The position numbers and the translations under genes were made by a program. From positions 1,920,001 through 1,984,000 of the forward strand of contig CP147779.1 of NCBI GenBank assembly GCA_037308085.1: a stretch of 64,000 bases of DNA, in the 5' to 3' direction. Positions 6,988 to 62,086 of this stretch are shown here, piece after piece (position 1 is the first letter of the stretch; every line of letters begins with the position of its first letter). This stretch comes from Promethearchaeati archaeon SRVP18_Atabeyarchaeia-1 (GTDB lineage Archaea; Asgardarchaeota; Atabeyarchaeia; Atabeyarchaeales; Atabeyarchaeaceae). The notes beneath the pieces were generated by a model, which saw only the letters and a program-made list of their open reading frames with translations, did not search any database and had not been told where the DNA came from.

Positions 6988-8697
6988 TTGCAGTTCACGT
7001 TCGAAGCCGAGCTCGCCGCGCTATCAAGCGGCGACAGAAGCGGGCTCGATGACCTCATGGCGAGGTACTGCTCCGCGAAGAGGATAGCCTACAACAGGTT
7101 GCTGGAGGGGAGAAGCGTAAACGAGGTGACGCACCTGCTTCTTGGGTACGGCTCCCTCCACCTGAACTGGAGGTACGCGGAGCACTCAGCCCGGGACGCC
7201 CAGGCAGCGATCGAGAGCCAGAGGAACCTGCTGCCACTATACCTGGGCAGCGTGCAGGACAGAATATGGCGCGTCGAGGAGCTTATGGGGAAGGCGAAGT
7301 CGCTTGGCAAGAGGGTGAGACTCGGCAAGCTTCTCGCGAGGCTCAGGAAGAGGGCAGAGTTCTACCGGAAACATATCCACGATGGAACGGTACCGAAGAC
7401 GATCTTCGGGGGCAGGAGGAGCTTCACCGCCCTGGCAAGGGGTAGCATCAGCAGCCATGAGTGGAGGGAGGCGAGGAGCAACCAGGTCTACTCGATAGGC
7501 CAGGCGAACCAGAAGGGAAACGCCAACATGAGAATCGTGAAGGAGGGGAGAGCGTTAGCGGTCCGCTTCCCAGAGAATATGGATAGAGCAAGGACCGGAA
7601 AGGGTGGAAGAGTGTTCAGGGTGGCGAGCAGCGTCAAGGAGTTCCAGCTCATGGTTCCCAGCAAGTTCCTGGAGTACCTTGCGCCTTTCCAGGGTGGCGG
7701 GGCATATTCGGTTCGCTTCACGAGGCGCGGGGGAAGGTATTTCGCAGATGTGAGCTTCGAGGTTGAGCAGCCACCGCGACCGAAGGAAGCGCCGCTGAGG
7801 GTGTGCTCGGTGGACCAGAACCCAGGGGGATTCCCCGCCACAATCACCTCCCGGGACGGCAACCTGGTAGCCCACAGGTTCCTGAGGGAGGACAGGCTGA
7901 TATACGCCTCCCAGGGGAAGAGAGACTCGCTGGTCGGGGCGCTGGTGAGCAGCATAATGGAGTTCGCCGAGGACTGGGACACGCACTCATTCGCGATAGA
8001 GGACCTGGACCTGGAGACCCACAAGGATTTCGGGAGGAGGGTGAACAGGGTCGTGCACGCCTTCGTGAGGAGGAAGTTCACGGAGAACCTTCTGAGCAGG
8101 TGCTGGAAGAAGCGGTACCCGGTCTCCACCGTCAACCCGGCGTACACGTCGAAGCTCGGCGCCGCGAAGTACTCGTGGAGGCTCGGGTTATCGGTCCACG
8201 AGGCAGCCGCGTACGTGATTGAGAGAAGGTTCTACGGGTACGGTGAGAAGCTGGAGAAGCCATTACCCATTTCCTTCAGGAGAGGCAGGATGCCGAGGGT
8301 CAGGGTGCCCGTGCGTTACGTGTGGGCGTCCCTCTACGGCCGCGCTCACCCGGGGGACCCCTACAGGGCGCCACCTGGAAGGAAAGGCAGTAGGGGCTTG
8401 AAGCTGGGCGGGCCTGGTCGAGCCGACTTCACAGGTCACCCCGCTTGCAGAGAACGAGGACAGGGCACACCTCTGAAGGGTAATGATGGGGTGCGAAAGG
8501 GCGGGGAGCCCGGTGAGAATCCGGGGGCTACCGGCAATGGGGTTAAGCCGGCGCCTGGAAGACCGGGTGGGAAAGTAGCTGCTACGTCATCAAGTGTCAA
8601 TCGATACTTAATGATAGGCAGAAAACCAACCCTTAATGCGTCTGACACCCTCAACTGCGTTTGCCGCGTAGTCATCTGCTCCCATTGCCCTCGCTAG
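6988..8697 (+). CDS. tnpB: Long TnpB-related RuvC protein lacking the zinc ribbon (HxAAAxVI type); the last ~110 codons probably overlap a structured RNA and the next gene
   Basis: RuvC-I VCSVDQN, RuvC-II FAIEDL, VNPAYTSK followed directly by SVHEAAAYVIERR. Confidence 0.8.
   Translation: MQFTFEAELAALSSGDRSGLDDLMARYCSAKRIAYNRLLEGRSVNEVTHLLLGYGSLHLNWRYAEHSARDAQAAIESQRNLLPLYLGSVQDRIWRVEELMGKAKSLGKRVRLGKLLARLRKRAEFYRKHIHDGTVPKTIFGGRRSFTALARGSISSHEWREARSNQVYSIGQANQKGNANMRIVKEGRALAVRFPENMDRARTGKGGRVFRVASSVKEFQLMVPSKFLEYLAPFQGGGAYSVRFTRRGGRYFADVSFEVEQPPRPKEAPLRVCSVDQNPGGFPATITSRDGNLVAHRFLREDRLIYASQGKRDSLVGALVSSIMEFAEDWDTHSFAIEDLDLETHKDFGRRVNRVVHAFVRRKFTENLLSRCWKKRYPVSTVNPAYTSKLGAAKYSWRLGLSVHEAAAYVIERRFYGYGEKLEKPLPISFRRGRMPRVRVPVRYVWASLYGRAHPGDPYRAPPGRKGSRGLKLGGPGRADFTGHPACRERGQGTPLKGNDGVRKGGEPGENPGATGNGVKPAPGRPGGKVAATSSSVNRYLMIGRKPTLNASDTLNCVCRVVICSHCPR
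8367..8600 (+). ncRNA. Putative omegaRNA-like structured RNA at the 3' end of the long TnpB gene (boundaries approximate)
   Basis: Consecutive hairpins CCCGG-tgagaat-CCGGG (8509-8525), CCGGC-n11-GCCGG (8531-8551), GCCTGG-aaga-CCGGGT (8553-8568); the peptide over this stretch is low-complexity G/P/R. Confidence 0.5.
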
Positions 8698-9243
8698 CTC
8701 CATGTTCAAAGGTGCCCCACCTACAATTATCTTAACCTTGTCGCGAAGGCCCGCGTCCCTGAGAGCTTTGTCGACAAGGGATATCTCCTTCACGCTCGTC
8801 GTGAGAAGGGCACTCAGGGCTACCAGCGTAGCGCCCGACTCTTTAACTGCTTGGACTATCCTTTCTCCATCGCAGTCCGTTCCCAGATCAACAATCCTGA
8901 ATCCAGTCGACATCAACATCGAAATCAGTATGTTCTTTCCAATGTCGTGGTTGTCTCCTTTCACAGTCGCGACAACGACTGTCCCGTTGCCTCCCGTCTC
9001 GCCTGACTTGATGTGCGGCGTTAGCGCGGCTATTGCTTCTTTCATCGCCTCGCCAGCCGAGATAAGTTCAACAAGGAAATACTCCATTTCCTCATATAGG
9101 CGCCCAACTTCATTCATGCCTTTTGAGAGGGCTGCCAAGATGTCCTGTGGATCTGCGCCCGCGTCAAGTTCTTTCTGAACAGCGCCACCAATTTGGTCAA
9201 CGTCTAGTTCAACGAGCATCTTGGTTATTGATTCCAGGGTCAC
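8608..9243 (-). CDS. Corrinoid (B12-binding) protein, MtbC/MttC-like
   Basis: B12 cap domain, TVKGDNHDIGKN (DxHxxG), SALLTTS, IIVGGAP; AGGAGGAGG RBS before GTG at 9243. Confidence 0.92.
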   Translation of the reverse strand: MTLESITKMLVELDVDQIGGAVQKELDAGADPQDILAALSKGMNEVGRLYEEMEYFLVELISAGEAMKEAIAALTPHIKSGETGGNGTVVVATVKGDNHDIGKNILISMLMSTGFRIVDLGTDCDGERIVQAVKESGATLVALSALLTTSVKEISLVDKALRDAGLRDKVKIIVGGAPLNMELARAMGADDYAANAVEGVRRIKGWFSAYH

Positions 9244-9279
9244 GCTTTGCCTCCTCCTATGCTGTGGAGTGCTATAGAG

Positions 9280-9309
9280 TCTCTGCAATGCGCGCAGACA
9301 TTGTAGAGA
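9280..9309. promoter_or_regulatory. Inverted repeat (11-bp arms, one mismatch) in the divergent corrinoid/glycosidase intergenic region; candidate operator
   Basis: TCTCTGCAATG-cgcgcaga-CATTGTAGAGA, just downstream of a minus-strand GGTTAATAAG TATA-like box. Confidence 0.45.
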
Positions 9310-9509
9310 AATGGCAAATCTTATTAACCTGCTGAAAGCTAACACAGCAAAATAGTTTCGTTTGAGCAACATGAACGAAAACTTGACAGGAGACAAAGAA
9401 GGTATAGTCAAAACTTATCTTTCAGACATCCGCATGCTACACCTCCAGATTCTAACAGTAGAGGTTTCATCTCTGACACAGATATCAGCACAAGAGAAGT
9501 GAAGCCATC

Positions 9510-12239
9510 ATGAAAGGCGCGAAACCATTCGGCTCAGGATACTTCGGTAAGTGGATTAAGGACGAATTCGATCTCCCGGCATATCAATACACCTGCAAGC
9601 AGATTAGCGATCCTAAAGCAGTCACCCTGATGAATGAAACTTGGCGCCTCAAAACGGATCACGTTCATCAAGTTGGGAATGACAGACTCGTCGCCGTAGC
9701 ATCAAACTACGGGCATGTACAGGTACGCCAAGACGAGGGCAGCCCCAAGTTTCTAAATGACTATGATGCAGAGCACATGCAATTTGCTGGAGGATTCGGT
9801 TACCTAACCGATGGAACGAAGGTTCTAAGCACTTTCTATTCGGGACGTGAAGAGAGATTCGACCGCATATTTGGAACAGGGTATTATAGGAAGACCGTAA
9901 AAGGGCACGACTTGATGGCAGACCAGATCATCTTCGCCCCGTTCGGCGACGATCCTCTGCTCATCTCCCAAGTTACAGTCAAGAACGAGCGGGATACGCC
10001 CGCTGATCTCAGATGGATTGAGTACTGGGGTTGTCAGATCTACCAGTTCTCTTACAAGTCAACGATGATGTCTTTGGCTACAAAACGACCCCCTATGGAG
10101 TCCCGCCGAAGGCTTGGCAGACGGTTCGAACACAACATCAGCGTGATTGAGAAGAATCACGGTCTGCTCGACGCGAAGCGTTTCAAGGGTTATGACCCGG
10201 GTGACGAGCAGGCTTGGAAACTTGTCAACCAGTACTTGGCTACCCCAGCTGGAAAAGCTCTCACGGGCGGAGCTGTCGAGTCTCCCGTTAGGGAAGCATC
10301 AATCGAGGATTTGTCTCCTCCGCCAGTCTTCCTTGTGTCCCTTGACGCGCCCTTCGATGGCTTCACCACTGATGCCTCGTCTTTCTTTGGAAAAGGCGGT
10401 GCACAGCACCCCGATGGACTGCAGAAGCCTCTCCTTGAGCGCTCTGTCGCACCTAATGCAGAGAAGGGATTGTTTATAGAACGTAAGCTGCCCTTGAATC
10501 CGGGACGAAGCAAGACGATGTACTTCGCTTTCGGCTATCAGCCCCAGGGAGTCGAGCTTCGACCTCTTCTGCTCAAGTACGAGCACGAGCTTCCAAACCT
10601 GCTCGCTCACTCGAGCGGACAATGGAAGGGCAACCTAGTCCAACTTGAACTGGATGATGAACCTTGGGTTAATCGCGAACTAACGTGGCACCATTATTAC
10701 CTTAGAAGCAACCTGACTTTTGACAGCTTCTTCAAAGAGCACATTCTGTCCCAAGGCCACGTCTACCAGTACATCATCGGGTTCCAGGGGGCTATGCGCG
10801 ATCCCCTACAGCATGCCCTACCATTCATCTACAGTGAGCCATGGATCGTAAAAACTATCATCAAATACACCCTGAAGACGGTGACGCCAGAAGGCAGAAT
10901 CCCGTACGGGATAGTCGGAAGCGGAATGTACATGCCCGCGCCATTTCGCCCCAGTGATCAGGAACTGTGGCTGCTCTGGCTCGCAAGTGAATACGTCCTA
11001 GCTACGCGAGACCTTGAGTTCCTAAAGGAGCAGATTGGAACCTATCCCTTGTACGGTCCAAAATCACAGCTAACACGAGTCGGAGACTTGTTGCGCCTCT
11101 GCTACCGACACTTGGTGGAGCACATTGGGACCGGAAAACATGGTTTGCTGCACCTAAGTAATGGTGACTGGAACGACGCCGTAGTCGCAGGCTATGTCCC
11201 ACAGAAGCAGCGCGACGCCGTCTCACAGGCTGGAGGAGAGGCGCTGGACTTCAAGGCGAGCTACAGCCAAGTTGGAGAAAGCGTGTTGAACGCGGCAATG
11301 GCAGGATACGTCCTAGATATCTACGCTAGACTACTGAGCTACGCTGGAGACAAAGAATTGGCCGCAGATGCAAGGAAGCGCGCTCAAGGTCAGCGCGAAG
11401 CCGTTCGCTCTCAGTGGACTGGGAAGTGGTTCAGGCGAGCATGGCTCACAGAAGAAATTGAGTGGATTGGCGTGGACGAAATGTGGCTTGAGCCTCAGCC
11501 CTGGTCCATCATCAGCGGGGCAGCTGACCCAAACCAAGCAAAAACCCTTCAACAGTCAATTCATGACAGTGTTCGGAAACCGTCAAAACTAGGAGCGACA
11601 ATACTCAGTAAGCCTACTAAAGCGATGGCGGGAGCTCCAGGAACTGGAACAAATGCAGGTATATGGCCCTCGATTAATGGTGTCCTCGTATGGGCGTTAT
11701 CACTCACAGACCCTCAGCAGGCGTGGGACGAATGGAAGAAGAACACACTTGCAATGCATGCCGAAGCGTACCCTGATGTGTGGTACGGCATCTGGAGCGG
11801 ACCAGACGTGTACAACTCCGAACACTCGAAGGCCCCAGGCCAAGTCGATGTGGAGCTTCTGGGCGTGAAATGGACTGACTTCCCCGTGATGAACATGCAC
11901 CCACATGCATGGCCACTCTACTCGATCACAAAGTTCGTGGGAGCGGAGTTCACGGAGCGCGGTGTCGATCTCTCGCCTGTCATTCCGAAAGACAAATTCA
12001 GATTCTCCTCCCCTCTTCTCGACTTCGAGAAAACGAAAGAGGGTTACTCGGGCAAGTATGCACCTAAGGCGGCAGGCAAATGGAGAATAGCTCTCCGACT
12101 CGACCAGAAGGAACTCCAGCGCATCTCTGTGGTGGAGATCAACGGCAGAAGTGAAAAGCCTGTTCGTGAGGCCGACCGAATCATCCTCCAAGGGGATAGT
12201 ACATCTGACAAGCCGCTAAGGTGGGTTCTGAAGTATTGA
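9510..12239 (+). CDS. GH94-like glycoside phosphorylase/hydrolase, (alpha/alpha)6 barrel
   Basis: 909 aa; RDPLQHAL, SDQELWLL, GTGKHGLL, GDWND, GESVLNA, WLEPQPWSII, NAGIW. Confidence 0.8.
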   Translation: MKGAKPFGSGYFGKWIKDEFDLPAYQYTCKQISDPKAVTLMNETWRLKTDHVHQVGNDRLVAVASNYGHVQVRQDEGSPKFLNDYDAEHMQFAGGFGYLTDGTKVLSTFYSGREERFDRIFGTGYYRKTVKGHDLMADQIIFAPFGDDPLLISQVTVKNERDTPADLRWIEYWGCQIYQFSYKSTMMSLATKRPPMESRRRLGRRFEHNISVIEKNHGLLDAKRFKGYDPGDEQAWKLVNQYLATPAGKALTGGAVESPVREASIEDLSPPPVFLVSLDAPFDGFTTDASSFFGKGGAQHPDGLQKPLLERSVAPNAEKGLFIERKLPLNPGRSKTMYFAFGYQPQGVELRPLLLKYEHELPNLLAHSSGQWKGNLVQLELDDEPWVNRELTWHHYYLRSNLTFDSFFKEHILSQGHVYQYIIGFQGAMRDPLQHALPFIYSEPWIVKTIIKYTLKTVTPEGRIPYGIVGSGMYMPAPFRPSDQELWLLWLASEYVLATRDLEFLKEQIGTYPLYGPKSQLTRVGDLLRLCYRHLVEHIGTGKHGLLHLSNGDWNDAVVAGYVPQKQRDAVSQAGGEALDFKASYSQVGESVLNAAMAGYVLDIYARLLSYAGDKELAADARKRAQGQREAVRSQWTGKWFRRAWLTEEIEWIGVDEMWLEPQPWSIISGAADPNQAKTLQQSIHDSVRKPSKLGATILSKPTKAMAGAPGTGTNAGIWPSINGVLVWALSLTDPQQAWDEWKKNTLAMHAEAYPDVWYGIWSGPDVYNSEHSKAPGQVDVELLGVKWTDFPVMNMHPHAWPLYSITKFVGAEFTERGVDLSPVIPKDKFRFSSPLLDFEKTKEGYSGKYAPKAAGKWRIALRLDQKELQRISVVEINGRSEKPVREADRIILQGDSTSDKPLRWVLKY

Positions 12240-13279
12240 ATTCGCGGGATCTCACACTATCGGCTATTGAAGGGACGCCTGAGAAGGTCCCGTTCAATCC
12301 CTTCATAATGCATCTTGCGGCAACAATTGAAGGGATCAACTACAGTCAAGTCTACTGTCGCGATGCCGAAGCACTTGTAGAGGCGCACATGAGCTGTGCG
12401 AAAACCTTTGGGATCGACCATGTCAACGTCTCCACAGACGCCTACAGGGAAGCCAGTGCCTGGGGTGTCGAGGTCGATTTCTCTGGTCATACTCCAGTCC
12501 CTTCAAAAACCCTTAGGTTTGAAAGCTTCGACTCGCTGGAAACGCCTGACCTCAGCGTTAACGAACGAGTCCAGAACCGCGTCCAGGCTGTGAAACTGCT
12601 CAACATCAAAGTGGGTCGCGAGCAGTGTATCGTCGGATGGATAGAAGCACCATTCGCGGAGATCTGCTGCCTCTTCGGGCTAATGGAGGTACTTAAGCTC
12701 GGATGGAAACCAGATTGGAAGAATTGGGTAAAAGCGCTGATGGAGCGGGTCTTGCCGGTTCAGCTTGAGTTCGCCAAGATGCAGATCGAAGCAGGCGCAG
12801 ACATCATTGGGGCGGGCGACTCCGCCGTCTCCCAAATAGGTCCCAAGAGATACGAGGAGGCTTGCCTTGAGAAGACCCAAGAGCTCTTCAGGTCAATCGG
12901 AAGGCAGGTGCCCGTCTTGTACCACGTCTGCGGCGATACCTCTGCTCTGGATAAGGAGGGACGCGACATGCTGAAGCTCCTCTCAAGATCTGGGGCCTCC
13001 ATCTTGGATATCGATTATCAAGTCAATATGGCTGTAGCGAAGAGCAAGATTGGCAACCAGATATGTCTTCGAGGAAACACTAACACCAGCCTCCTCGGAA
13101 ACCGCCTATACGGGTCCGAGGATGTCGCCCGTGAAGTCACCCAGACAATTGAAGCGGGGAAGCCAGACGGCAGGTACATGTTTGGAGCTGGGTGCGAATG
13201 GCCCTGGGAGCCACTCGACGTGGCAGCAAGAAACCTAGGCATCGCAAAGACGCTCAACGATAGGCTGGGGGTCTACTGA
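12236..13279 (+). CDS. Uroporphyrinogen decarboxylase-fold methyltransferase (MtaA/CmuA-like)
   Basis: EASAWG, GWIEAPF, QIEAGADII, LYHVCGD (Zn HxC), GAGCE; TTG start overlaps the upstream stop. Confidence 0.85.
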   Translation: MNSRDLTLSAIEGTPEKVPFNPFIMHLAATIEGINYSQVYCRDAEALVEAHMSCAKTFGIDHVNVSTDAYREASAWGVEVDFSGHTPVPSKTLRFESFDSLETPDLSVNERVQNRVQAVKLLNIKVGREQCIVGWIEAPFAEICCLFGLMEVLKLGWKPDWKNWVKALMERVLPVQLEFAKMQIEAGADIIGAGDSAVSQIGPKRYEEACLEKTQELFRSIGRQVPVLYHVCGDTSALDKEGRDMLKLLSRSGASILDIDYQVNMAVAKSKIGNQICLRGNTNTSLLGNRLYGSEDVAREVTQTIEAGKPDGRYMFGAGCEWPWEPLDVAARNLGIAKTLNDRLGVY

Positions 13280-14455
13280 ATGAATCCGAGACAGAGGGTT
13301 ATAGCGGCACTGAACCATGAAGAACCAGACATGGTTCCGATCGACCTCGGCGGAAACCAGTCCGGCATTCACATGAAAGCCTACAAGAATCTACTCAACT
13401 ACCTCGATATTGAGGACAACGACATTAGGTATAGTGACTTCATCCAGCAACTCGCATATCCATGCGAAGAGTTACTGCAACGCCTCGACGTGGACATAAG
13501 GTGGCTGCGGACACCATCATCACTCATCCCCGAGCGCTTCACACCACAAGCAGAGGGAAAGTACCAAGGGGTATTCGATCAGTTTGGAGTATTCTGGGGT
13601 GACAGCGCTGAAAAAGACGTTGAAGATATTCTATTCTATGACCCATGCATCCATCCACTGAGCGACGCAACCACCGTCCAAGAGATAGTGCAGTACGACT
13701 GGCCAGACGGGACTGACAAGTCGCCGCTCGATGGACTCCGCGAAAATGCTAAGAAGCTAAGGGAAACCACCAAGTATGCTATCGCCGCACCTCCCCTGGG
13801 ATGCATCTACGAATACACGACCTTTCTCTTTGGCTTCGAGAAAGCCCTTCGGTTCCTGCGAATGAGGCCAGAGCTCATCGTCGCAGCAATGGAGGAGCTT
13901 GAGAGATACTGGACCGACTACGCCACAACATACCTGAATGAAGTAAAGTTTGGAGACGAGCATTACGTCGACATAGTCGCCGTCAACGGAGACCTAGCTG
14001 CGCAGACTGGCCCAATCATGAATGTGGACAACATCTACTCGCGAATCATCAAGCCAATAGAACGCAGGTTCGCGAAGAAGATACACGAGCTCGCCCAGGT
14101 CAAAGTCAACTACCATTGCTGTGGATCAGTAGCGCGTTTCATCCCCCACTTCGCCGAGATCGGATATGACGCAGTGAACCCGGTACAGGTTGCAGCATAT
14201 GATATGGAACCATGCAGTCTGAAGGAGCGTTTCGGGAAGATTATCTCGTTCTGGGGTGGATTGTGCGACACACAACATACACTCCCCTTCGGCTCCCCCG
14301 AGCAGGTCCGCAGCGAAGTACTCCACAACATGGCGTGCTTGAGGCCGGGCGGAGGATACGTCGCGTCGAACATCCACAACGTAACCGCAGAGGTGCCACC
14401 CCTGAACGTGGTCGCAATGTTTGACGCCAGCAGGGAATTCAGGCGCCACCAGTGA
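13280..14455 (+). CDS. Second URO-D-family corrinoid methyltransferase-like protein
   Basis: MNPRQRVIAALNHEEPDMVPIDLGG, YHCCGS, NPVQ, FWGG..DTQHTLPFG, PGGGY...HN; starts immediately after the previous stop. Confidence 0.85.
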   Translation: MNPRQRVIAALNHEEPDMVPIDLGGNQSGIHMKAYKNLLNYLDIEDNDIRYSDFIQQLAYPCEELLQRLDVDIRWLRTPSSLIPERFTPQAEGKYQGVFDQFGVFWGDSAEKDVEDILFYDPCIHPLSDATTVQEIVQYDWPDGTDKSPLDGLRENAKKLRETTKYAIAAPPLGCIYEYTTFLFGFEKALRFLRMRPELIVAAMEELERYWTDYATTYLNEVKFGDEHYVDIVAVNGDLAAQTGPIMNVDNIYSRIIKPIERRFAKKIHELAQVKVNYHCCGSVARFIPHFAEIGYDAVNPVQVAAYDMEPCSLKERFGKIISFWGGLCDTQHTLPFGSPEQVRSEVLHNMACLRPGGGYVASNIHNVTAEVPPLNVVAMFDASREFRRHQ

Positions 14456-14534: not shown

Positions 14535-16709
14535 CTAAGGAGATACCTCGACCCAGATCGGCCCTGCGTAGGCAATTCGCCCGTTAGCTCCGACGACGCG
14601 TATCAAGTAGAAATCCGCCCCACCTGTATTCAGCTTGCTCGGATCTATTGGGTTATCGCTGTAGATGTTTATGTAGTATTTTCCGTCTATCTGGACGCAG
14701 TTCTGTACCCCGTACGATGTGCCTGCTACTGGCGCAGTGTCGATTAGTGTTATGTTCGCCACTGGGGTACTTATCGGGATGCGCGCTGTAAGGTTGCCGT
14801 TCTTGAAGACTTCTATGTTGGCGTTCCAGTCTGGAGTCCAGTTGGGCGTAACGTGTGCTGCCCCCGGGCGCTTGTTTGCGGCAGGTGCGCCGTCCTGCGC
14901 AACAACAATCGTTATCTCTCGTGCGGTGGAGGCGCTTGTCACCTTGAGGGTGGAACCGTCTCCTACTCGCGTGCCGTTGATGGTGAAGTCGATGAACGGT
15001 CGCCCGTAGTCCGACGACGCGAAGATTCTCTGGTTCTCCAAGCCATCGAAGACCGAATTCCGGGTGAGGTTGATCGCGTAGACTGCCGTGATCCCGCTTG
15101 GGTAGGGCATGGAGATCCGGTTGGGCCAAGTTGTCCAGGGTCGCTGGTGCCCTATGTAGGCATCTGTGTGAGCCAGCGAGTGTCCTGGGTGCCCGTCGTG
15201 GTTGTCGCCTGAAGCGTATAACGTCATCCTGTAGCCCATCTTGAATGCATCCATGATGCACGTTCCAGGTGTATACAGGGGCGGCGGATCTCCACAGGGG
15301 TTGTAGTCGAGGGGATCGCGTTGCTCGAAAAGGGACTCACCATGGACTGACGTGACCTCGGCGATCTTCACGTACTTCGGGTTGATGTACGTCCAGTCCT
15401 GTATGTAGCCCAACTTCGTGGTGTGGTGGGGTAGCGCCAGTGCGCGACACCCGGTTGAGTTTGTGAAGGCGTCGAGGAGACTCCACAGCCCTTGGGTCGT
15501 GGGGATCGTCATATACGAGATGATGGGATTATCGGGTAGACTGTCCCCGCTGAAGATGCATGTATAGTGGCCCGTGCTCGTCTGAGTCCACTCGACTCCC
15601 TGAAGTGCAACGAAGCTTCCAGGGTCGTATGCGGCGTTGGTGGCCCCCTCCGAGTGAGCCAAGGCACCAAGCTCAAACTGCATAGTTTCTCCGTGATCCG
15701 TCAACGCGCAGTAGTCTAGGCAAGCCACATACCTCGCGTAATAGTAATGGTGCTCGGGTGATCCTGTTCCATCGGAGAGCCCCGAGTGACCGTGGAAATC
15801 CCCCCAATAGATCTTGGGATCCACGCTTGAGAAGCTTCCAACTATGATGGGGTTGCTCCAGTAGGTGTTCATGGTGACTGTGTCATTAACCAGAATGTAG
15901 TGGACGCCCGGGGTGTCTATCTTAGCTGTGAAAACGTGGAGTCCGTTGTCTCTGCCATCACGAATATCATAAGCCATGTCGTTGCCGTATGCCTGCCCGC
16001 TGAAGGTGTATGTTTCCGGGAGGCTGGCGCCTACCGATGGGAGTGGACTAAATGTCGTCAGATTATACGACTTGATGGAGAAAGCTACGGTGCCCGCGTA
16101 GACTGCGCTTAGCCTCTCGTAGGGATCCCACGCCTCAACACTCAAGGGAAAACTGGTGCCGGCGTTTACGGTTGTGGGCGCGTGAACCCAGAGCAGGCGG
16201 GGGTTGTTGTCAAACATGACTCCAAGGTTAATGCTTGCACTCCACCAGAGCGCTGTCGGCACCAGGACTATGGTCAGAACGGCTGCAACCTTGGCGTACT
16301 TGGGCATCTTCCTGGCAATCCCGTTCACCCTATCCGTTATGCTTGGCTTCTGCAGGCTTCGCCTCTGCCAGAGCCTCCAAGAGCCAAAAAGCACAATGTA
16401 GACGATTAGCGTGCTCGGCCCCATTATCATTGACAGCAGGTTGGCCGAGATATTCGAGCCGACTGCGGGGTCGCTGAAGACGTTAATGATTACTGTGGTG
16501 ATACCGGCGGTCCACGCCAAAACAACTCCGCTGAGCCTCCACGTGGGATTCCTGAAGAGAAGAAAATAGGATGCACCTATTGCCAGGCCGATGTAGCTCT
16601 GAAAGAAGAAGGTCGTCGTGTAGAACCCGTATACAAGGATAACCAAGCGAACAAGAAACAACACTCTGCGTCTTGGGTCCCGCTTGGTTGCCTTTGGCTT
16701 GGACGGCAA
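14535..16709 (-). CDS. Membrane-anchored DUF3604/PHP-fold metallohydrolase, paralogue 1
   Basis: N-terminal TM helices; YWGDFHGHSGLSDG, LTDH, GVEWT, PHH, SGDNHDGHPG. Confidence 0.8.
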   Translation of the reverse strand: MPSKPKATKRDPRRRVLFLVRLVILVYGFYTTTFFFQSYIGLAIGASYFLLFRNPTWRLSGVVLAWTAGITTVIINVFSDPAVGSNISANLLSMIMGPSTLIVYIVLFGSWRLWQRRSLQKPSITDRVNGIARKMPKYAKVAAVLTIVLVPTALWWSASINLGVMFDNNPRLLWVHAPTTVNAGTSFPLSVEAWDPYERLSAVYAGTVAFSIKSYNLTTFSPLPSVGASLPETYTFSGQAYGNDMAYDIRDGRDNGLHVFTAKIDTPGVHYILVNDTVTMNTYWSNPIIVGSFSSVDPKIYWGDFHGHSGLSDGTGSPEHHYYYARYVACLDYCALTDHGETMQFELGALAHSEGATNAAYDPGSFVALQGVEWTQTSTGHYTCIFSGDSLPDNPIISYMTIPTTQGLWSLLDAFTNSTGCRALALPHHTTKLGYIQDWTYINPKYVKIAEVTSVHGESLFEQRDPLDYNPCGDPPPLYTPGTCIMDAFKMGYRMTLYASGDNHDGHPGHSLAHTDAYIGHQRPWTTWPNRISMPYPSGITAVYAINLTRNSVFDGLENQRIFASSDYGRPFIDFTINGTRVGDGSTLKVTSASTAREITIVVAQDGAPAANKRPGAAHVTPNWTPDWNANIEVFKNGNLTARIPISTPVANITLIDTAPVAGTSYGVQNCVQIDGKYYINIYSDNPIDPSKLNTGGADFYLIRVVGANGRIAYAGPIWVEVSP

Positions 16710-28235: not shown

Positions 28236-29581
28236 AGTAGTCTTTGCGAGGAAGCCCACGCCCTTCAGGGGTGGGAGGAATCGCAGCGGCATGCCAGTTG
28301 TGAGCCTTAAATACCACCCACCCTGACGTCCTGTAGGGATACCATGAGAAAGTGCCTGCCCCTAAACCTCCTAAAGCCAACGGGGAAGAAGAGAAGAATC
28401 CTCAGGAAGACGTACGCCACGTACCTGGGAATTGTGAGGGAGGCGCTCTGCAGCCTTGGCGGCGCCAAGAGCAGGGCTCAACTCCACAACAAGACCTACA
28501 CGAGGCTCAGGGCGGAGCACAATATAGCATCCCAACTCGTGATTGAGGCAACAAGCCACGCGTGGAGCGCAGGGAAAACCGCGAGCAGAGGCGTGGAGGG
28601 GTGCATCGTCCGCTTCGACTCGCGCCTCTTCAGCTTCAGGCAAACCGAGAGAGGAAACCCTGTCCTAGCTCTGAGGACCAGCGCCGAGAGGATCGGCCTG
28701 CCGCTTTGTAGGGACGGCGCCTACCAGCGCCTCCAGGCACACCTCTTCCAAGGGTGGAAGCTGACCAGCATCATTATGAAGAGGAGCATGAGGTTCCTCG
28801 TCGTCCTCTCCAAGGAGATGCCCGCGTCTCAGGTGAGGCGCAACTGGCTGGGAGTGGATGTGAACAGCCCGAGGATCGCCACCTCTACCACAGGCCCAGA
28901 CTGCAGCGTCCTGAAGCAAGCCTACTACGGGATGGAGGTCGCCACAAGGCAGTTCAACTTCGAGAAGAGGCGTGCAGCACTCCAGCAGCTCAGGGACACC
29001 TCATCGAGAAGCAAGGCCGGACTAAAGCTTAAACGCCTCGCCAGGAGTCAGAGAAACTACGTGCGCACCAGCATCTGGCTCGTCGCCAACCAGATAGTGC
29101 AACAGGCAGAAGCACTCGGCGCAAACATCGCCATCGAGAAGCTGAGCCACCTCAGGAAGAGGCGGGGCGAGTGGAGCGCAGCGAGCCGCAGAAAGGTGAA
29201 CCGCACCCCCTACGGCTTCCTCAGACACGCCCTAAGACACGTAGCTGAGAGACGTGGTGTGCTGCTGGTTGAGGTTGATCCCAGGTACACGTCTCAGATG
29301 TGCCCCTACTGCGGGTACACGAGCAAGGCGAACTGGGTAGGCTACTCCTACTTCAAGTGCAGAGCATGTGGCTATGAGGCGAACCGAGACCGCGTTGCGA
29401 GCCTCAACATCGCCCTCAGGGCGGCCCAAACACAAGACACGTCCAGAGCCCACGAGATGGGCCAGTTTCCTGGGGGGAGCGCCTCCGTCAGTAGGCGCGT
29501 TTGGCAAGGTGAAGGGTTTGAAAGGCCGCGCCAGACAACCCCGAGTTGCAAGCCCACAAGCTTCAGCGGTGGGTAACTGAC
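28236..29581 (+). mobile_element. tnpB-only IS200/IS605 (IS1341-type) element, copy 1 (1346 bp); target TCAC, right end TGAC
   Basis: Homology with copy 2 starts at TCAC|AGTAGTC; LE hairpin GAAG-CCCAC..GTGGG; RE CAAG-CCCAC..GTGGG-TAACTGAC. Confidence 0.93.
28344..29576 (+). CDS. tnpB: TnpB RNA-guided nuclease (410 aa)
   Basis: LGVDVN, IAIEKL, CPYC/CRAC, NRDRVASLNI. Confidence 0.95.
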   Translation: MRKCLPLNLLKPTGKKRRILRKTYATYLGIVREALCSLGGAKSRAQLHNKTYTRLRAEHNIASQLVIEATSHAWSAGKTASRGVEGCIVRFDSRLFSFRQTERGNPVLALRTSAERIGLPLCRDGAYQRLQAHLFQGWKLTSIIMKRSMRFLVVLSKEMPASQVRRNWLGVDVNSPRIATSTTGPDCSVLKQAYYGMEVATRQFNFEKRRAALQQLRDTSSRSKAGLKLKRLARSQRNYVRTSIWLVANQIVQQAEALGANIAIEKLSHLRKRRGEWSAASRRKVNRTPYGFLRHALRHVAERRGVLLVEVDPRYTSQMCPYCGYTSKANWVGYSYFKCRACGYEANRDRVASLNIALRAAQTQDTSRAHEMGQFPGGSASVSRRVWQGEGFERPRQTTPSCKPTSFSGG

Positions 29582-30926: not shown

Positions 30927-32537
30927 CTAACTATTACTGGTTCCGTGGAGCCAGCTTCTGGATTTCTTTGAGATTACTGCTTTATCAGGGTTTATTCCAT
31001 GCCAACTTATCTCATACCCCAGCTGGCTGAGGAGGGCTTGAGGGCTCCTTATTCCAATTTCCTCTATTAGTTTCGACGCCGCGAATAGAGTCACAGCTCC
31101 GTTCGCTAGGAGAGTTTCGAACCTTTCGTCGATTTCCTTTAGCAGACTTTCTGAGACTAACTGGTCGCCGACCTTGACGTAGCCTGTGTGGGGTCTCTCC
31201 TCAATATCCTTCATTAGGGCTTCAACTGGAACATCCATTTGGCGAGAAAGATCCTTCAAATCAACCACATCCCCTTCAAGTTTCAACTCGATTTCCGAAA
31301 CCTTCTTGAGCTGCTTCGAGAAGACGTCAAATTCGATCTTCTTCAAGCGGTCCAGAATCGGTTTCAACGCGACGCTCTTGTCGAAGAACACAACGTCAAC
31401 GGGCAAACCTGACAGTTTTCTTGAGGCGCCAAGCTTCTTGTCTACAGCAATAATCATGTTGGGCACCGAGAGCTGCCTTATCTTCTGGATTTTCCTTTCA
31501 AGGTATTCCTTCGTCCAGAATCCGACTATTTCAAGATAGACTTTTACGCCGTCCTTCTCAAGGCTGAAGTCAGGTATCATCACTGTCCCAATACTCGTCA
31601 CAAGAGGTTCTGGTTCCCTTTGGATCTTCCAACCGGACCCGAATGCCACAAAGTCTCTCCAAAACTTTTCCTCGATCGCGCTGTCAAACGTTCGGATTGG
31701 TTCGACGGCGTGCTCACTCGGTGCCTCAATTTGGCCCTTGATTTCTCTGCAGTCTAGTTCAAACCCGTAGATCCGGGGAAACCCCTCTCTTCGCCTCAAT
31801 ATATCTGCCCTAATCTTCCAGTACTCACTCTCAAGTATTACCGGCAAGAGTTTGGCGATGGAGGTGCCGTACTTCTCGGTCATCTTCATTAGGGCCATTG
31901 GCCCCTCCACGGTTATCTCGTAGTCGTCTGCTCCCAGGTACTCAACGAAGTACATGAGCCCGAGCCGCTTGATGCTTCTGAAGATGTTCTTGAAGCTCCC
32001 CCTCCTGACAGTAAACTCCACCCTAACCGCTTTGAATAGTAATGTCTGCGTCAAGCCCAGATTATAGTATCTTATTAAAGCGCCATCGTCCACGGGATAG
32101 AATTGCCTAAGCTTGAGGTTCTCATCGAAGTCAGACCACAGTGACTTTTCAAGATCTTGAGTTGTGGTTCCGAGCTCCTTGGCCGCCCTACCCATAATCT
32201 CAGCCCTTTTCTCTCGGCTTGTGGGAAGGCCGAGATTGGCGGCCAGAGTGAAGACCAGCCTCCTTGCCGGTCTCGGGTCAACTGGGCTGCTCGCCTCGAA
32301 GACGCATCTCCGCATCAGGAGGGTTCCTAGCCCTCGTATCAGCCTGTAATCATAGTGGCCTTCGTTTTCTAGTTTTTCCAGCTCCCCGTATATCTCTTCC
32401 TTGTTTTGTCCTATCGCATTCTCAAATGTCCCCGAAAGTCTTCTGGCAAGGTTGAGAGTCTCATGCGTGAGAGGAGCGTATCTCGGTCTTATCTTGCCCC
32501 TCACGAACGTCGTGATCAAGAGATTATTGGGGAGCAT
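30927..32537 (-). CDS. bax1: Bax1 (DUF790) endonuclease
   Basis: YNLGLTQTLL, FDSAIEEKF, IPDF, EIVGFWTKEYL; overlaps xpb. Confidence 0.92.
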   Translation of the reverse strand: MLPNNLLITTFVRGKIRPRYAPLTHETLNLARRLSGTFENAIGQNKEEIYGELEKLENEGHYDYRLIRGLGTLLMRRCVFEASSPVDPRPARRLVFTLAANLGLPTSREKRAEIMGRAAKELGTTTQDLEKSLWSDFDENLKLRQFYPVDDGALIRYYNLGLTQTLLFKAVRVEFTVRRGSFKNIFRSIKRLGLMYFVEYLGADDYEITVEGPMALMKMTEKYGTSIAKLLPVILESEYWKIRADILRRREGFPRIYGFELDCREIKGQIEAPSEHAVEPIRTFDSAIEEKFWRDFVAFGSGWKIQREPEPLVTSIGTVMIPDFSLEKDGVKVYLEIVGFWTKEYLERKIQKIRQLSVPNMIIAVDKKLGASRKLSGLPVDVVFFDKSVALKPILDRLKKIEFDVFSKQLKKVSEIELKLEGDVVDLKDLSRQMDVPVEALMKDIEERPHTGYVKVGDQLVSESLLKEIDERFETLLANGAVTLFAASKLIEEIGIRSPQALLSQLGYEISWHGINPDKAVISKKSRSWLHGTSNS

Positions 32538-33891
32538 CGTGCTTCTCCTCCACCAAATTCCTCTTCCTTCTCCAGCTCATCCACGTCTCAGAGGTCTTCT
32601 TTGAGACGACCTCTATCAGTTTGGCCTTCTTCCCTTCCCTTTTTCTGAGGATTCTTCCCAGGCGTTGAATGAACTCTCTTGAGGAGCCCGTTCCGCTCAG
32701 GATGACGGCCCTCGTGGCGTCGGGGACATCGACTCCTTCGTCCAGGACTCTTGACGTGACTACTGCTTTGTATTTGCCTTCCCTAAAAGTGTCAAGTATC
32801 TCCGTCCTTTCGTCCTTCGGAGTCAAGTACGTGATACATGGGACCAGGAATTCGGCGGAGATCATGTGGACCAGCTTATTGTGGGCAGTGAACACTATTG
32901 TGGGCTCGTTAGGATTCCTGGACAGGATTTCTCGGAGAGCAGAGATCTTTGACTTCGAGTTAAGGGCTATTCCAAGAGCTCTATTCCTCGCTATGAGGGC
33001 TTTCCTTGCGCTTGGATCCTTGTTGGTCATCATGATGAACCTCGTGAAGTCGGTCGGTGAACTCATAGGTATGCCCTTCAGCTCCACGTAATCCCTGAAG
33101 ACCTTGTAGAGTCTTTGATACTCAGCCTCCTCTTCAGGCGCCAGGTCGACGGAAACTTTTTCAGTCTCGAATGGAGAAAGGTGTGTCCCCACGAGATCGC
33201 GCACACCTAATTCGAATACCTTCCCCCCGACGAGACGAGGAAGATCCGTATGCAACCCATCTTCCCGCTCGTAAGTTGCAGTTAATCCAAGCCTGCAGGG
33301 ACAGGCGAACACCTCAGCAATGTGGGAGTAACCAGTACTGGGCAAATGGTGCACCTCATCAAAAATAACCAGGCCAAACCTGTTCCCCAGTTCCTCCCCC
33401 CTGATATAGGCAGAGTCGTACGTCGATACAGTCAAGGCTTCTAGCCTATATTCTCCTCCTCCGTAAACGCCAACCTGCACAGCGAACTCCTTCTCCAGAT
33501 ACCTGCGCCATTGCTCCACGAGATCCAAAGTTGGAACAACGACTATCGTCGGCGTGTCAAGGTGCGCTATTGCTGCAACGCCAATCGCAGTCTTTCCCGC
33601 CCCTGTAGGCAGCACTATGACTCCTCTTGCCCCAACCTTAAGCCAAGCGTCTAGGGCATCCCTCTGGTAGGATCTCAGCTCGAGCTTACACTCAAGGTGC
33701 GGACACGGTAAAAGGTCCATGACCTTGTCAACGTAAGGTATCCGACTTCTCTTCAGATATTCGGCTATGTCAGCATAATCCACAGCCAGCGCCTTAGAAG
33801 AGTGAGAACGTGGATCGAACGTGGATTTAGGAACCCTATAATCACCGCTCACAACAATGATGCCTCTATCATACTGCAGATTCACGGCCAA
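32524..33891 (-). CDS. xpb: XPB/Rad25 SF2 helicase
   Basis: LRSYQ, LPTGAGKT, DEVHH, LGLTAT, DEGVDVP, QRLGR; start inferred. Confidence 0.93.
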   Translation of the reverse strand: MAVNLQYDRGIIVVSGDYRVPKSTFDPRSHSSKALAVDYADIAEYLKRSRIPYVDKVMDLLPCPHLECKLELRSYQRDALDAWLKVGARGVIVLPTGAGKTAIGVAAIAHLDTPTIVVVPTLDLVEQWRRYLEKEFAVQVGVYGGGEYRLEALTVSTYDSAYIRGEELGNRFGLVIFDEVHHLPSTGYSHIAEVFACPCRLGLTATYEREDGLHTDLPRLVGGKVFELGVRDLVGTHLSPFETEKVSVDLAPEEEAEYQRLYKVFRDYVELKGIPMSSPTDFTRFIMMTNKDPSARKALIARNRALGIALNSKSKISALREILSRNPNEPTIVFTAHNKLVHMISAEFLVPCITYLTPKDERTEILDTFREGKYKAVVTSRVLDEGVDVPDATRAVILSGTGSSREFIQRLGRILRKREGKKAKLIEVVSKKTSETWMSWRRKRNLVEEKHDAPQ

Positions 33892-34272
33892 CTCGTGCTC
33901 ACCCAATCCGACAATCCAAAACGCTTGCCCGACTGTGCATCCCGGCGGCGTGCGCCTCAAGTGAAACCTAAGAAGTTCGGCAGTACTTAAGCGTTCCATT
34001 TGAAACGCCGACCCGAATAGTTCGCTGACGCGGCCTTCCGCATTCCGCGGTATACCTCTTCGGAGCAAGCGTGAGTCCCGCTGGGAAATGGGCGAATGTG
34101 GAGTGCTCAAAGACCCTTTCTTCTGCTTCCTTCGAGGGTACTTCCGATGGCTGGCTTTGTCTCAGGTAGCCTATCCTTTGGGGCGAGACAGGAGAGGCGC
34201 GCTATCAGGTTTTTAAGGAGGCGGATAGCTAGAAGTAATGACAGAAGGGAACAGAATAGATTGGTGGAGCAA

Positions 34273-35325: not shown

Positions 35326-35796
35326 TCATGAAGATTCCTCGCATGGAGACCCCTCAACTTGTTGAGGGGAGGAAATGCGATCCTTTCTTGGTCTCCCAAC
35401 AGTCCGCTGCCTTTGCTCCTGAACGTAGCGCCTGACGGTATCCTCGGAGACATATCCGACCGTACCGATGTAGTAGCTGGGACTCCAGATGTGGCCATGC
35501 TGGAACATCGTGCGCAGTGCCGAGTGCCTCTCGAAAAGAACCTTGGCTGTCGTACCCTTCAAGACCTTCACTATTCCGGTAGGAGACTCACTTGGTGGTG
35601 CCTCGATGAAGAGGTGAATATGGTCCGGCATCACCTCCATGGACTTTATGCTCCATTCGCGGGCCTCAGCTATTGAGCATAATGAGGTTCGCAAGGTTCT
35701 CAGCACGGACCCGGGCAGACTCTTCCTGTACTTAGGGCACCACACAATGTGGTAGGCGACCTCCCAGACGGCGGATGTGCCTCGGTGCACCTGCAC
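35326..35796 (-). CDS. tnpA: IS200-family Y1 HUH transposase
   Basis: YHIVWCPKYRK, PDHIHL, WSPSYY, VRRYVQEQ. Confidence 0.95.
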   Translation of the reverse strand: MQVHRGTSAVWEVAYHIVWCPKYRKSLPGSVLRTLRTSLCSIAEAREWSIKSMEVMPDHIHLFIEAPPSESPTGIVKVLKGTTAKVLFERHSALRTMFQHGHIWSPSYYIGTVGYVSEDTVRRYVQEQRQRTVGRPRKDRISSPQQVEGSPCEESS

Positions 35797-35819
35797 GTTA
35801 CCATACCTCCGCAAGAGAA

Positions 35820-35841
35820 ATATATACCATATGGTATATAT
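35820..35841. promoter_or_regulatory. Perfect 22-bp palindrome between divergent tnpA and tnpB (back-to-back TATA-like boxes)
   Basis: ATATATACCATATGGTATATAT is its own reverse complement. Confidence 0.7.
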
Positions 35842-35849
35842 ATCCCTTT

Positions 35850-36875
35850 ATGCTGCGAACCATCACCGTCAAGCTGGAAGATAACCAAGCCGTTACGAAC
35901 ACCGTTAGATGTTTCAACGAGTGCTGCAACTTCTTTCGCAGGGTCGGCTTTGACAGCAAGACATACTCGAAGTGGGTGCTTCAGGCGCTGGGCTACAGGG
36001 AAGCAAGGAGAAGGTGGCCTTGCCTTCAGTCGTCACTCGTTCAAGGGGCGCGCGACTGCGCTTGTGATATGCTGAGGCACGAGGAGCTTAGGGGACTCCC
36101 GTTCAAGAAGCCTTGGTCAAGTGCACGCTTCAATCAGCGGACATTCAAGGCATACCTGGACAGTGCTTGTCTATCACTCGCAACAGTCAATGGCCGACAG
36201 AGGATACCCATTAGGATCCCTGAATACTTCCTAGTCTACTCTGGTGGCGGAATCGTGTCCCTTCGCATTAGGCTAAGTAAGGGTGCACTCTGCGCAGATC
36301 TCGTGATCGAGCTGCCCGCTGCTGCTATTCCGAATAAGGTACGGAACGGACCACCCGTGGTGCTTGGCGTTGATAGAGGAATAACTAATGCTGCAGTCTC
36401 CTCCAACGGAGCATTCTTCAATTCAAGGGCGATCAGAAGGGTTCGTGGCAGGTATGCGTATCTGCGTGGGAGGTTGCAGGCCGCAGGCACCCGCTCGGCG
36501 AGGCGCCACCTCAGGCGACTGTCGGGGCGGGAGAGACGGTTCCAAGCCGACACCAACCACTGCATCGCTAAGCAGATTGCCGCCATGGACTACGATGTCC
36601 TGGCGCTCGAGGAGTTGGGGATAAGGAGAAGGAAGCCACAGGGGCCAAGGTTCAACCGGATGCTCGGGGGCTGGGCATACGCTAAACTCGGAGCCTTCCT
36701 CAAGTACAAATGTGAGGATAAGGGGAAGAGAGTTGTGCTCGTTCCGCCTGAGAACACCAGCCGCACATGCTCTCGTTGTGGAGCGTTCGGAAGGCGGCAT
36801 GGCAGCACGTTCAGTTGCCCGTCGTGTGGCATTGTCCTGAACGCTGACTTGAACGCTGCGCGAAACATCGCCTAG
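35850..36875 (+). CDS. tnpB: Compact TnpB (341 aa)
   Basis: LGVDRG, LALEEL, CSRC/CPSC, NADLNAARNI. Confidence 0.95.
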   Translation: MLRTITVKLEDNQAVTNTVRCFNECCNFFRRVGFDSKTYSKWVLQALGYREARRRWPCLQSSLVQGARDCACDMLRHEELRGLPFKKPWSSARFNQRTFKAYLDSACLSLATVNGRQRIPIRIPEYFLVYSGGGIVSLRIRLSKGALCADLVIELPAAAIPNKVRNGPPVVLGVDRGITNAAVSSNGAFFNSRAIRRVRGRYAYLRGRLQAAGTRSARRHLRRLSGRERRFQADTNHCIAKQIAAMDYDVLALEELGIRRRKPQGPRFNRMLGGWAYAKLGAFLKYKCEDKGKRVVLVPPENTSRTCSRCGAFGRRHGSTFSCPSCGIVLNADLNAARNIA

Positions 36876-45900: not shown

Positions 45901-46103
45901 GTAAACGGCGTGATGCTTCGCATCCTTAAAAGAACTCATGAAAACGCGGAGGTTTGCCACATCGTGGTAAACCTCTAATGAACCCAAAAGATGTCTGCAT
46001 AGTTGTTACGTGGCGCCAAAAAGACTTGGAGTTTCATGGTCTGAATGGTCAAAAATAGTTAAAAGGCGCGCGCACCTTCTTAGGAACAGTGGTTTTGGAA
46101 ACC

Positions 46104-61870: not shown

Positions 61871-62086
61871 CAACCATCATCCTCCGATCCTGGACTCCGC
61901 CAGACAATGAAGGAGATAAAAGCTATAGTTCTTTCGCATGCGCCTGCGTCCCTGAATTATCCGAACTCAGTGACCCAGAATAAGGCATGAGGACCTCTTT
62001 CTAAGCTCTCGCAGATTTGGGAATATCGCAAATACCCCGCAAAGTATAAAATCGGCAACATGCATCTAGTGGCTGGGGACACGACC

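Follow-up and report, generated by a model that had tools for sequence, protein, structure and literature searches.

A GH94-fold enzyme gene linked to a candidate corrinoid methyl-transfer set in Asgard archaea

Organization of the gene cluster

The window analyzed here is a stretch of 64,000 nucleotides (C1:1920001-1984000, where C1 marks genome coordinates) of the closed 2,808,651-bp genome of the Asgard archaeon SRVP18_Atabeyarchaeia-1. It harbors a cluster of four genes that encode a GH94-fold enzyme, two proteins of the UroD superfamily (termed T1 and T2) and a corrinoid (cobalamin-binding) carrier protein (Table 1). The GH94-like gene overlaps the gene of the MtaA-like T1, the gene of the more remote family member T2 abuts the latter, and the corrinoid gene runs divergently on the opposite strand. 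A first-pass annotation of the window had described this layout and read it as a glycoside phosphorylase coupled to a corrinoid methyl-transfer set. All four genes lie where it had placed them, and its methyl-transfer set is supported by the DxHxxG motif of the corrinoid protein, the His-Cys-Cys residues of the MtaA-like T1 and the predicted docking of T2 onto the corrinoid protein.

The gene boundaries are tightly packed. A T1 start at GTG 12221 would give a 19-nt overlap with the GH94-like stop codon, and a start at TTG 12236 a TTGA overlap; the latter is more likely, because the TTGA overlap fits the MNSRD N-terminus of the orthologues. The ATG of T2 (13280) directly follows the T1 stop codon (13277-13279). 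The GH94-like, T1 and T2 genes thus arranged appear to form one operon with predicted translational coupling. For the corrinoid gene, the listed open reading frame (ORF) begins at TTG 9411, yet GTG 9243 is most likely the start, because it is preceded by GGAGG at 7 nt and gives a length of 211 residues, which matches the orthologues (209-211 residues) and their N-termini. The spacer between the two divergent genes presumably holds both promoters. At its 3' end, the corrinoid gene is overlapped by 90 nt by a TnpB-like ORF. Rfam and tRNA scans of the window returned no matches.

Table 1. Positions of the gene cluster and of other features in the window
Feature	Position	Strand	Length	Remarks
Corrinoid (cobalamin-binding) carrier, MtaC/MtbC type	8608-9243	-	211 aa	listed ORF 8608-9411
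Divergent spacer, corrinoid gene/GH94-like gene	9244-9509	.	266 bp	from gene coordinates
GH94-fold enzyme	9510-12239	+	909 aa	PF17167 1e-20, PF06165 4e-10
T1, UroD superfamily, MtaA-like	12221-13279	+	347 aa from likely start TTG 12236	PF01208 1e-43
T2, divergent UroD superfamily	13280-14455	+	391 aa	PF01208 1.5e-14, C-terminal half only
TnpB-like ORF	6988-8697	+	569 aa	weak TnpB-family matches only
DUF3604/CehA-McbA PHP-type metallohydrolase	14535-16709	-	724 aa	convergent with T2
DUF3604/CehA-McbA PHP-type metallohydrolase	52338-54539	-	733 aa	paralogue of the preceding
TnpB/Cas12f-like ORF	28344-29576
TnpB/Cas12f-like ORF	35775-36875
TnpB/Cas12f-like ORF	38705-39937
TnpB/Cas12f-like ORF	44773-45987			between the GH130 genes
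TnpB/Cas12f-like ORF	50012-51286
XPB helicase and Bax1 (DUF790) partner	30927-34110	-
Eco57I/TaqI-type DNA methyltransferase	40100-42058	-
GH130 (beta-mannoside phosphorylase family)	42699-44618	-
GH130 (beta-mannoside phosphorylase family)	46089-47174	+
NurA-like nuclease	62060-63121	+

The GH94-like enzyme has lost the phosphate site

The GH94-like enzyme has no N-terminal leader evident from its sequence, and its nearest named relative, at 77% identity, is found in Ca. Atabeyarchaeum deiterrae. Its match to solved GH94 enzymes is weak, with an E-value of 1e-11 for the single sequence and 5e-23 for a profile. Structural similarity search of the AlphaFold2 model (predicted local distance difference test, pLDDT, 72; predicted template modeling score, pTM, 0.80) using Foldseek placed cellobiose phosphorylases on top (E 1e-27 to 1e-25), with template modeling (TM) scores of 0.58-0.65 over the full length at 16% identity. 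The model possesses the whole-length GH94 architecture, which comprises an N-terminal β-sandwich, a linker, an (α/α)6 barrel and a C-terminal β domain. The active-site loops 552-587, 691-722 and 748-795 are of low confidence, and the model was not used to tell hydrolase from phosphorylase.

The active-site residues listed for the cellobiose phosphorylase of Cellvibrio gilvus (CgCBP, PMC5501786) were assigned by profile alignment to its wild-type chain. The catalytic Asp490 and Trp488 of CgCBP correspond to D556 and W554 in a GDWND motif (552-556) that is present in 121 of 121 family members, and Arg367 and Asp368 of the -1 subsite to R430 (120 of 121) and D431 (121 of 121). The +1 subsite residues differ between the GH94-like enzyme and the GH94 phosphorylases, and all four canonical phosphate-binding positions are replaced, in 119-120 of the 121 members. 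CgCBP R351 is replaced by S414 (119/121), at the position where the alignment is least certain of the four, H666 by S721 (120/121), T731 by M796 (107/121, otherwise Leu) and G732 by H797 (120/121); an invariant H-P-H motif occupies the T731/G732 region. Because all four residues are lost, the name phosphorylase given in the first-pass annotation is unsupported, and we rejected a canonical phosphorylase identity. Judged from these residues, the enzyme looks catalytically competent for cleavage of a glycosidic bond, which would probably proceed by hydrolysis or with a remodeled anion site instead of canonical phosphorolysis.

T1, T2 and the corrinoid protein form a candidate methyl-transfer set

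The corrinoid protein consists of a B12-binding_2 cap (Pfam, 2e-15) and a Rossmann-type B12-binding domain (2e-21). Its DxHxxG motif reads D97-N-H99-D-I-G102, in which D97, H99 and G102 are invariant in 18 sequences. In the PDB, it matches 4jgi and the trimethylamine corrinoid protein 7xcn best, each with an E-value of 1e-36; the former was deposited as an uncharacterized protein, which we take to be the corrinoid protein of a putative Desulfitobacterium hafniense O-demethylase. With 164 bits, the protein scores below the curated cut-off of TIGR02370 (215), and its sequence assigns it to a clade related to, yet distinct from, that subfamily.

A tree of all UroD-family ORFs from the surveyed loci (see below) and the own genome resolved distinct clades. 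The profile of the T1 clade (A4) has MtaA (PDB 4ay7) as its best PDB match, with an E-value of 1e-27. His235, Cys237 and Cys325 of T1 align to the HxC...C zinc ligands of MtaA (in the motifs HiCG and GC), and they are invariant in 14 of 14 sequences. His-Cys-Cys coordination marks the S-methyltransferases of the superfamily, whereas O-demethylases replace one or both Cys (PMC10418091). The NCBIfam scores of T1 fall below the cut-offs of PRK06252 (81 bits, cut-off 244), mtaA_cmuA (79, 235) and MtaA_Meth (74, 400), hence T1 is not an MtaA orthologue. Its residues make T1 a candidate methyl-Co(III):thiol methyltransferase (MT2).

T2 represents the UroD type most often found with the GH94-like gene. 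The T2 clade (A2) profile matched only MtaA (2e-7) and CdmB (PDB 9rui, 6e-4, over the C-terminal 58 residues) in the PDB, and the AlphaFold2 model of T2 (pLDDT 91) matched, in this order, MtaA (Foldseek E 2e-13, TM 0.64-0.73), URO-D and MetE. H279 and C281 of T2 are invariant, and the position of the distal Cys in MtaA is occupied by an Ile followed by a conserved His. On this sequence pattern, T2 is a candidate substrate:Co(I) methyltransferase (MT1). A complex prediction of T2 with the corrinoid protein scored 0.80, compared to 0.00 for the best of 3 controls; the mark used for such predictions is reached by 58 of 80 solved complexes and by 2 of 110 mismatched pairs. At least 98% of contacts are shared between runs, with a partner pLDDT of at least 93. 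The predicted interface involves the DxHxxG loop of the corrinoid protein (residues 98, 101 and 104), other loops of its B12 face and the conserved 241-248 loop of T2. As a prediction, the model supports binding of T2 to the B12 face. Among longer proteins, no fusion of T2 to a B12-binding or other domain was found, a search that itself counts as weak evidence. Protein atlas look-ups of the GH94-like protein and T2 returned family names only.

A third UroD clade (termed T3) is placed beyond the corrinoid gene in Thor-type loci, a place that the TnpB-like ORF occupies in the window. The own genome has a T3-type gene (C1:1417786-1419003, in region L085, C1:1409001-1427000) with His-Asp-His at the zinc positions, which is divergent from a second corrinoid gene whose product is 61% identical to the corrinoid protein of the window. 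In PDB searches with the T3 profile, MtaA and CdmB (1e-5) ranked ahead of one weak URO-D match (E 1e-3). These T3 and second corrinoid genes adjoin genes for a DUF166 protein and a PFL-like glycyl-radical enzyme. A role of T1 or T2 as HemE in heme synthesis was also considered and rejected, as MtaA and CdmB are the preferred profile matches and both proteins have the HxC zinc motif. HemE is already the annotation of two further URO-D paralogues in the own genome, and the two uncharacterized UroD clades defined here risk being read in the same way.

The linkage of GH94-like and UroD genes is conserved

The profile of the GH94-like protein was scanned over one genome per species, which yielded 80 loci picked by the GH94-like gene alone; ORFs were called at these loci and then searched with profiles made from the window proteins. 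Of 400 Asgard genomes, 111 have a member of the GH94-like family, and so have 28 of 85 genera. In 40 of the 80 loci, a UroD gene is located no farther than 3 kb from the GH94-like gene, compared to a chance expectation of ~1.8%, calculated from the 7 UroD genes of the own genome. The pair is present in 33 of 40 Asgard loci and in 7 of 10 loci of bacteria other than Acidobacteriota, which include Chloroflexota, Thermodesulfobacteriota, a Syntrophomonadaceae bin and an Actinomycetes bin, but in 0 of 30 Acidobacteriota loci. A corrinoid gene lies within 4.5 kb in 14, 2 and 0 loci of the three groups, respectively; in the 14 Asgard loci, it is always divergent from the GH94-like gene, at a fixed position. 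As a control, in a paralogous GH94 clade that includes a paralogue of the own genome (C1:2287939-2290665), 0 of 18 loci have a UroD or corrinoid gene nearby. Together, the 80-locus survey and the paralogue control led us to reject chance adjacency, and the linkage that the first-pass annotation depended on proved to be conserved.

The arrangement of the genes varies between lineages. In Thor-, Hermod-, Hel- and Atabey-type loci, the genes overlap and are co-directional, whereas in Loki-type loci a single convergent UroD gene follows 20-40 bp downstream. Anaerolineales loci possess three UroD genes and no corrinoid gene, and one Chloroflexia protein of ~1450 residues fuses GH94-like, URO-D and SCP2 domains. 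The linkage thus spans two domains of life in co-directional, convergent, divergent and fused forms, and such varied arrangements indicate selection, not an inherited gene order. Altogether, these data support the gene set as a conserved functional unit.

The absence of UroD genes near the 30 Acidobacteriota loci shows that the GH94-like enzyme can work without UroD. We take the Asgard and other bacterial groups that have the link to be mostly anaerobes. A link in mostly anaerobic groups and never in Acidobacteriota is consistent with an oxygen-sensitive corrinoid step that is solved otherwise elsewhere.

Neighboring genes point to carbohydrate utilization

Conserved partners were obtained by clustering all flanking ORFs of the loci. 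An MFS_2 glycoside-type transporter is encoded in 19 loci, and a sulfatase with an SGSH_C domain in 16, where it lies directly upstream in Loki-type loci. FAD/NAD oxidoreductases (15 loci), GNAT (10 loci) and HAD (7 loci) proteins are also recurrent, and a TrmB+MEDS regulator directly follows T2 in four Thor-type loci. The neighbors in Acidobacteriota comprise a ROK kinase, SIS and SDR proteins, a sugar transporter and a PTE-family protein. The loci are carbohydrate-utilization loci. In 9 UroD-less Acidobacteriota loci, a gene of ~362 residues for a MetE-like protein (Meth_synt_2) of the same fold superfamily as UroD lies 0.9-6.9 kb from the GH94-like gene (for example L062:13600-14685), and it may be a cobalamin-independent stand-in.

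An SCP2 domain is fused to the partner UroD in Chloroflexota loci, in addition to its occurrence in the triple fusion. In the own genome, a convergent stand-alone SCP2 gene lies 40 bp downstream of the second GH94-like gene (909 residues; region L087, C1:2280001-2299000). SCP2 as a general partner of this paralogue was rejected, as the adjacency occurs in two Atabeyarchaeia genomes only. The DUF3604/PHP hydrolase gene 14535-16709 was likewise rejected as a member of the system, since homology search found it in only 2 loci.

Two alternatives we consider improbable. In the first, the UroD-fold proteins act without a corrinoid on a sugar-derived substrate, for instance as a decarboxylase or a MetE-like zinc enzyme, and the corrinoid gene is an unrelated neighbor. 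The core pair and the fusion indeed occur without a nearby corrinoid gene, the fold of T2 also matches URO-D and MetE, and the MetE-like gene of the 9 Acidobacteriota loci is cobalamin-independent. However, searches with the profiles of T2 and T1 match corrinoid methyltransferases (MtaA and CdmB) best, the zinc motif HxC is conserved and a MEDS regulator is present. Moreover, the corrinoid gene keeps its fixed divergent position, the predicted T2 complex would bury the B12 face of the corrinoid protein, and genomes with just the pair or the fusion encode stand-alone corrinoid proteins of 209-236 residues elsewhere. The second alternative, which we regard as very improbable, is a reverse, biosynthetic flow, where methyl groups of the Wood-Ljungdahl pathway would be passed via the corrinoid protein to a glycoside that the GH94-like enzyme would build by reverse phosphorolysis. 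Corrinoid methyl transfers are reversible in vitro (PMC7783988), and GH94 enzymes in general are capable of synthesis; the loss of the phosphate site and the linked importers, sulfatases, kinases and isomerases, which indicate catabolism, argue against it, and O-methylation of aliphatic hydroxyls by methyl-cobalamin is chemically unfavorable.

Proposed pathway and methyl donor

Gene anatomy, conserved linkage and residue patterns are shown here, whereas what the enzymes do, which way the methyl group flows and which substrate is used are inferred: the locus is rather probably a catabolic unit that cleaves an imported methylated β-glycoside and removes its methyl group in a cobalamin-dependent manner. 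In the first step, the apparently leaderless GH94-fold enzyme would cleave the glycosidic bond by means of the acid Asp556 and the -1 sugar pocket. T2, as MT1, would then bring the product that carries the methyl group to the Co(I) of the corrinoid protein, yielding CH3-Co(III). T1, as MT2 with a His-Cys-Cys zinc site, would hand the methyl group to a thiol acceptor; alternatively, one of three MtrH-type enzymes could transfer it to a pterin and thereby into the Wood-Ljungdahl pathway. Finally, the single, unlinked RACo enzyme would re-reduce the oxidized Co(II).

Several of these parts are encoded elsewhere in the genome. The sole RACo/RamA-type activator gene (C1:2791252-2793201), ~0.86 Mb from the cluster, is complete with Fer2, linker, middle and ASKHA domains, and three MtrH-family genes and CdhC are also present, unlinked to the cluster. 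The first-pass annotation was right that the window has no RACE/RamA activator; given the complete RACo, the three MtrH genes and CdhC, this absence is no gap in the pathway. A further UroD and corrinoid gene pair (C1:1845654-1847463, in region L086, C1:1838001-1854000) constitutes a further methyl-transfer set, and it adjoins two genes for large SBP_bac_5 solute-binding proteins.

As for the methyl donor, an O-methyl group on the sugar is a tentative candidate, favored because the neighbors are carbohydrate genes. A methoxy group on a hydrophobic or aromatic aglycone is about as likely a donor, favored by the known chemistry of UroD-type O-demethylases and by the SCP2 domains, and another donor, such as an S-methyl group, has only a slim chance. 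The sugar-borne methyl group could also be combined with a true GH94 phosphorylase, which would free O-methyl sugars or methyl glycosides whose aliphatic methyl ether is then passed to cobalamin; this variant we hold to be rather unlikely. It would agree with the conserved neighbors, all of which are carbohydrate genes with no linked aromatic catabolism, and with the sulfatase, GNAT and transporter genes of Loki-type loci, which fit decorated algal or animal glycans. Aerobes demethylate 6-O-methyl-galactose by a P450 (PMC6292453), which makes an anoxic counterpart plausible, and the Acidobacteriota loci without UroD would be those where other enzymes replace the oxygen-sensitive step. Nevertheless, none of R351, H666, T731 and G732 is retained, there is no known precedent for cleaving an aliphatic methyl ether of a sugar by means of a corrinoid, and a polar sugar donor leaves the SCP2 domains that are fused to or adjoin the partner genes unexplained.

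Imported phenolic or hydrophobic glycosides, such as methoxylated aryl β-glucosides of lignin or lignan type, offer another explanation, where the GH94-like enzyme deglycosylates the substrate and the methoxylated aglycone loses its O-methyl group in the manner of the Mto, Odm and Mtv systems. We judge this to be unlikely, although it has several points in its favor: Lokiarchaeota and Helarchaeota are reported to possess mtoABC homologues (PMC8359953), the wetland soil that forms the habitat abounds in plant phenolics (PMC11291895), and SCP2, a domain for lipids or hydrophobic ligands, is found in the Chloroflexota UroD fusions, in the triple fusion and after the second GH94-like gene. Aryl methyl ethers are the substrates of every characterized UroD-type O-demethylase. 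By contrast, neither T2 nor T3 seems close to the CdmB/MtoB branch, genes for aromatic-ring catabolism are not linked, the neighbors being sugar-type sulfatases, kinases and isomerases, and the adjacency of the paralogue to SCP2 is confined to the two Atabeyarchaeia genomes.

Some observations weigh against a catabolic unit of the proposed kind. No corrinoid gene is found within 10 kb in about 17 Loki-type loci or at the fusion, and the 30 Acidobacteriota loci have no nearby UroD gene. The relation of T2 and T3 to the MtoB/CdmB branch seems remote (E 6e-4 and 1e-5, respectively, with CdmB representing the branch); CdmB shows that the UroD superfamily also handles haloalkanes, and many of its clades have an unknown substrate. 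The restriction of the characterized O-demethylases to aryl ethers counts here as well, and a corrinoid enzyme that demethylates an aliphatic sugar ether was not found in the literature. Transporter, activator and pterin methyltransferase genes are all absent from the window. ComA (PF02679) was not found in the closed genome, where other routes to coenzyme M were not searched, and for lack of a ComA gene the acceptor of T1 may be a thiol other than coenzyme M. In addition, the GH94 row in the supplement of the Atabeyarchaeia paper (PMC11291895) ends with three zeros, which we take to be transcript counts, the meaning of the columns being not certain.

Sediments and wetland soils are rich in methylated sugars and in methoxylated glycosides of plants. 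To our knowledge, the only described sugar demethylation needs oxygen, and we know of no route in strict anaerobes. With considerable reserve, we propose that the cluster may perform the first oxygen-free, cobalamin-dependent aliphatic O-demethylation of sugars, in which an unrecognized UroD clade in physical coupling with a GH94-fold enzyme without phosphorolysis would feed glycan-borne methyl groups into the acetogenic C1 metabolism of Asgard archaea and anaerobic Chloroflexota. A conserved link between a glycosidase and corrinoid methyl transfer would widen anaerobic methylotrophy and acetogenesis by a new class of methyl donors, and it would assign to Asgard archaea a concrete part in the competition with methanogens over methyl groups. 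The analysis also defines a new GH94 subfamily without a phosphate site.

Other features of the window and genome

The window is unusually dense in TnpB/Cas12f-like ORFs, with five in 64 kb. One of them is flanked by the two GH130 genes, and one GH130 ORF, of 639 residues, has two GH130 stretches. Genes for an XPB helicase with its Bax1 partner, a NurA-like nuclease and a DNA methyltransferase are also present (Table 1). Elsewhere in the genome (region L088, C1:2795302-2797455), a dTDP-glucose-4,6-dehydratase-like gene is split by an intein-splicing domain.

Comparison with known systems

The pairing of GH94 with corrinoid or UroD proteins was not found in the literature on GH94, on sugar demethylation with cobalamin, on Asgard archaea or on Atabeyarchaeia. 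The Atabeyarchaeia paper (PMC11291895) discusses MttB, MtbC and MtrH systems and gives the gene only as a GH94 of unknown substrate, listed in its supplement as the cytoplasmic "GH94" gene number 1898 of "Atabeya_1". New in the present analysis are the loss of the phosphate site, the split of zinc ligands among T1, T2 and T3, the paralogue control, the taxon pattern, the links to SCP2 and MEDS, the docking test and the inventory of unlinked parts.

The cluster shares a candidate UroD-type MT1, a small corrinoid protein with DxHxxG, a second methyltransferase and a RACo-type ATP-dependent activator in the genome with MtoABCD of Methermicoccus and Archaeoglobus and with Odm, Vdm and Mtv of acetogens. 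Likewise, an MFS transporter is encoded next door, here in the related loci. They differ in that the in-cluster candidate MT2 is MtaA-like with His-Cys-Cys instead of MtrH- or MtvA-like, the activator and MtrH genes are unlinked, and T2 seems only remotely related to MtoB/CdmB. Moreover, the coupling of a GH94-fold enzyme to the methyltransferases, which in one bacterium is a fusion, is undescribed for such systems. T1 resembles the methylcobamide:coenzyme M methyltransferases MtaA and MtbA in fold, profile match and His-Cys-Cys ligands; however, it scores 74-81 bits compared to cut-offs of 235-600, and the genome yielded no ComA.

Compared to the GH94 phosphorylases of cellobiose, chitobiose, cellodextrin and cellobionic acid, the GH94-like enzyme has the same four-domain architecture, the catalytic Asp of DWND and the Arg-Asp and Trp of the -1 subsite. 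It is ~16% identical to them, carries Ser, Ser, Met and His plus H-P-H at the phosphate positions, and lies in a methyltransferase operon. The type 1 mlp clusters described by Kountz and Balskus (PMC10418091) similarly have several UroD paralogues and a corrinoid protein without an in-cluster pterin methyltransferase. The Mlps are almost invariably His-Cys-Cys and are linked to a RACE gene and to sulfur or selenium metabolism, whereas here His-Cys-Cys is found in T1 only, the RACE gene is unlinked and the conserved partner is a glycosidase.

The P450 demethylation of 6-O-methyl-D-galactose in aerobic marine bacteria (PMC6292453) shares the setting of carbohydrate utilization, and both systems would remove a methyl group that blocks use of the sugar. 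The P450 system consists of unrelated proteins and proceeds by oxygen-dependent oxidation, whereas an oxygen-free methyl transfer is proposed here.

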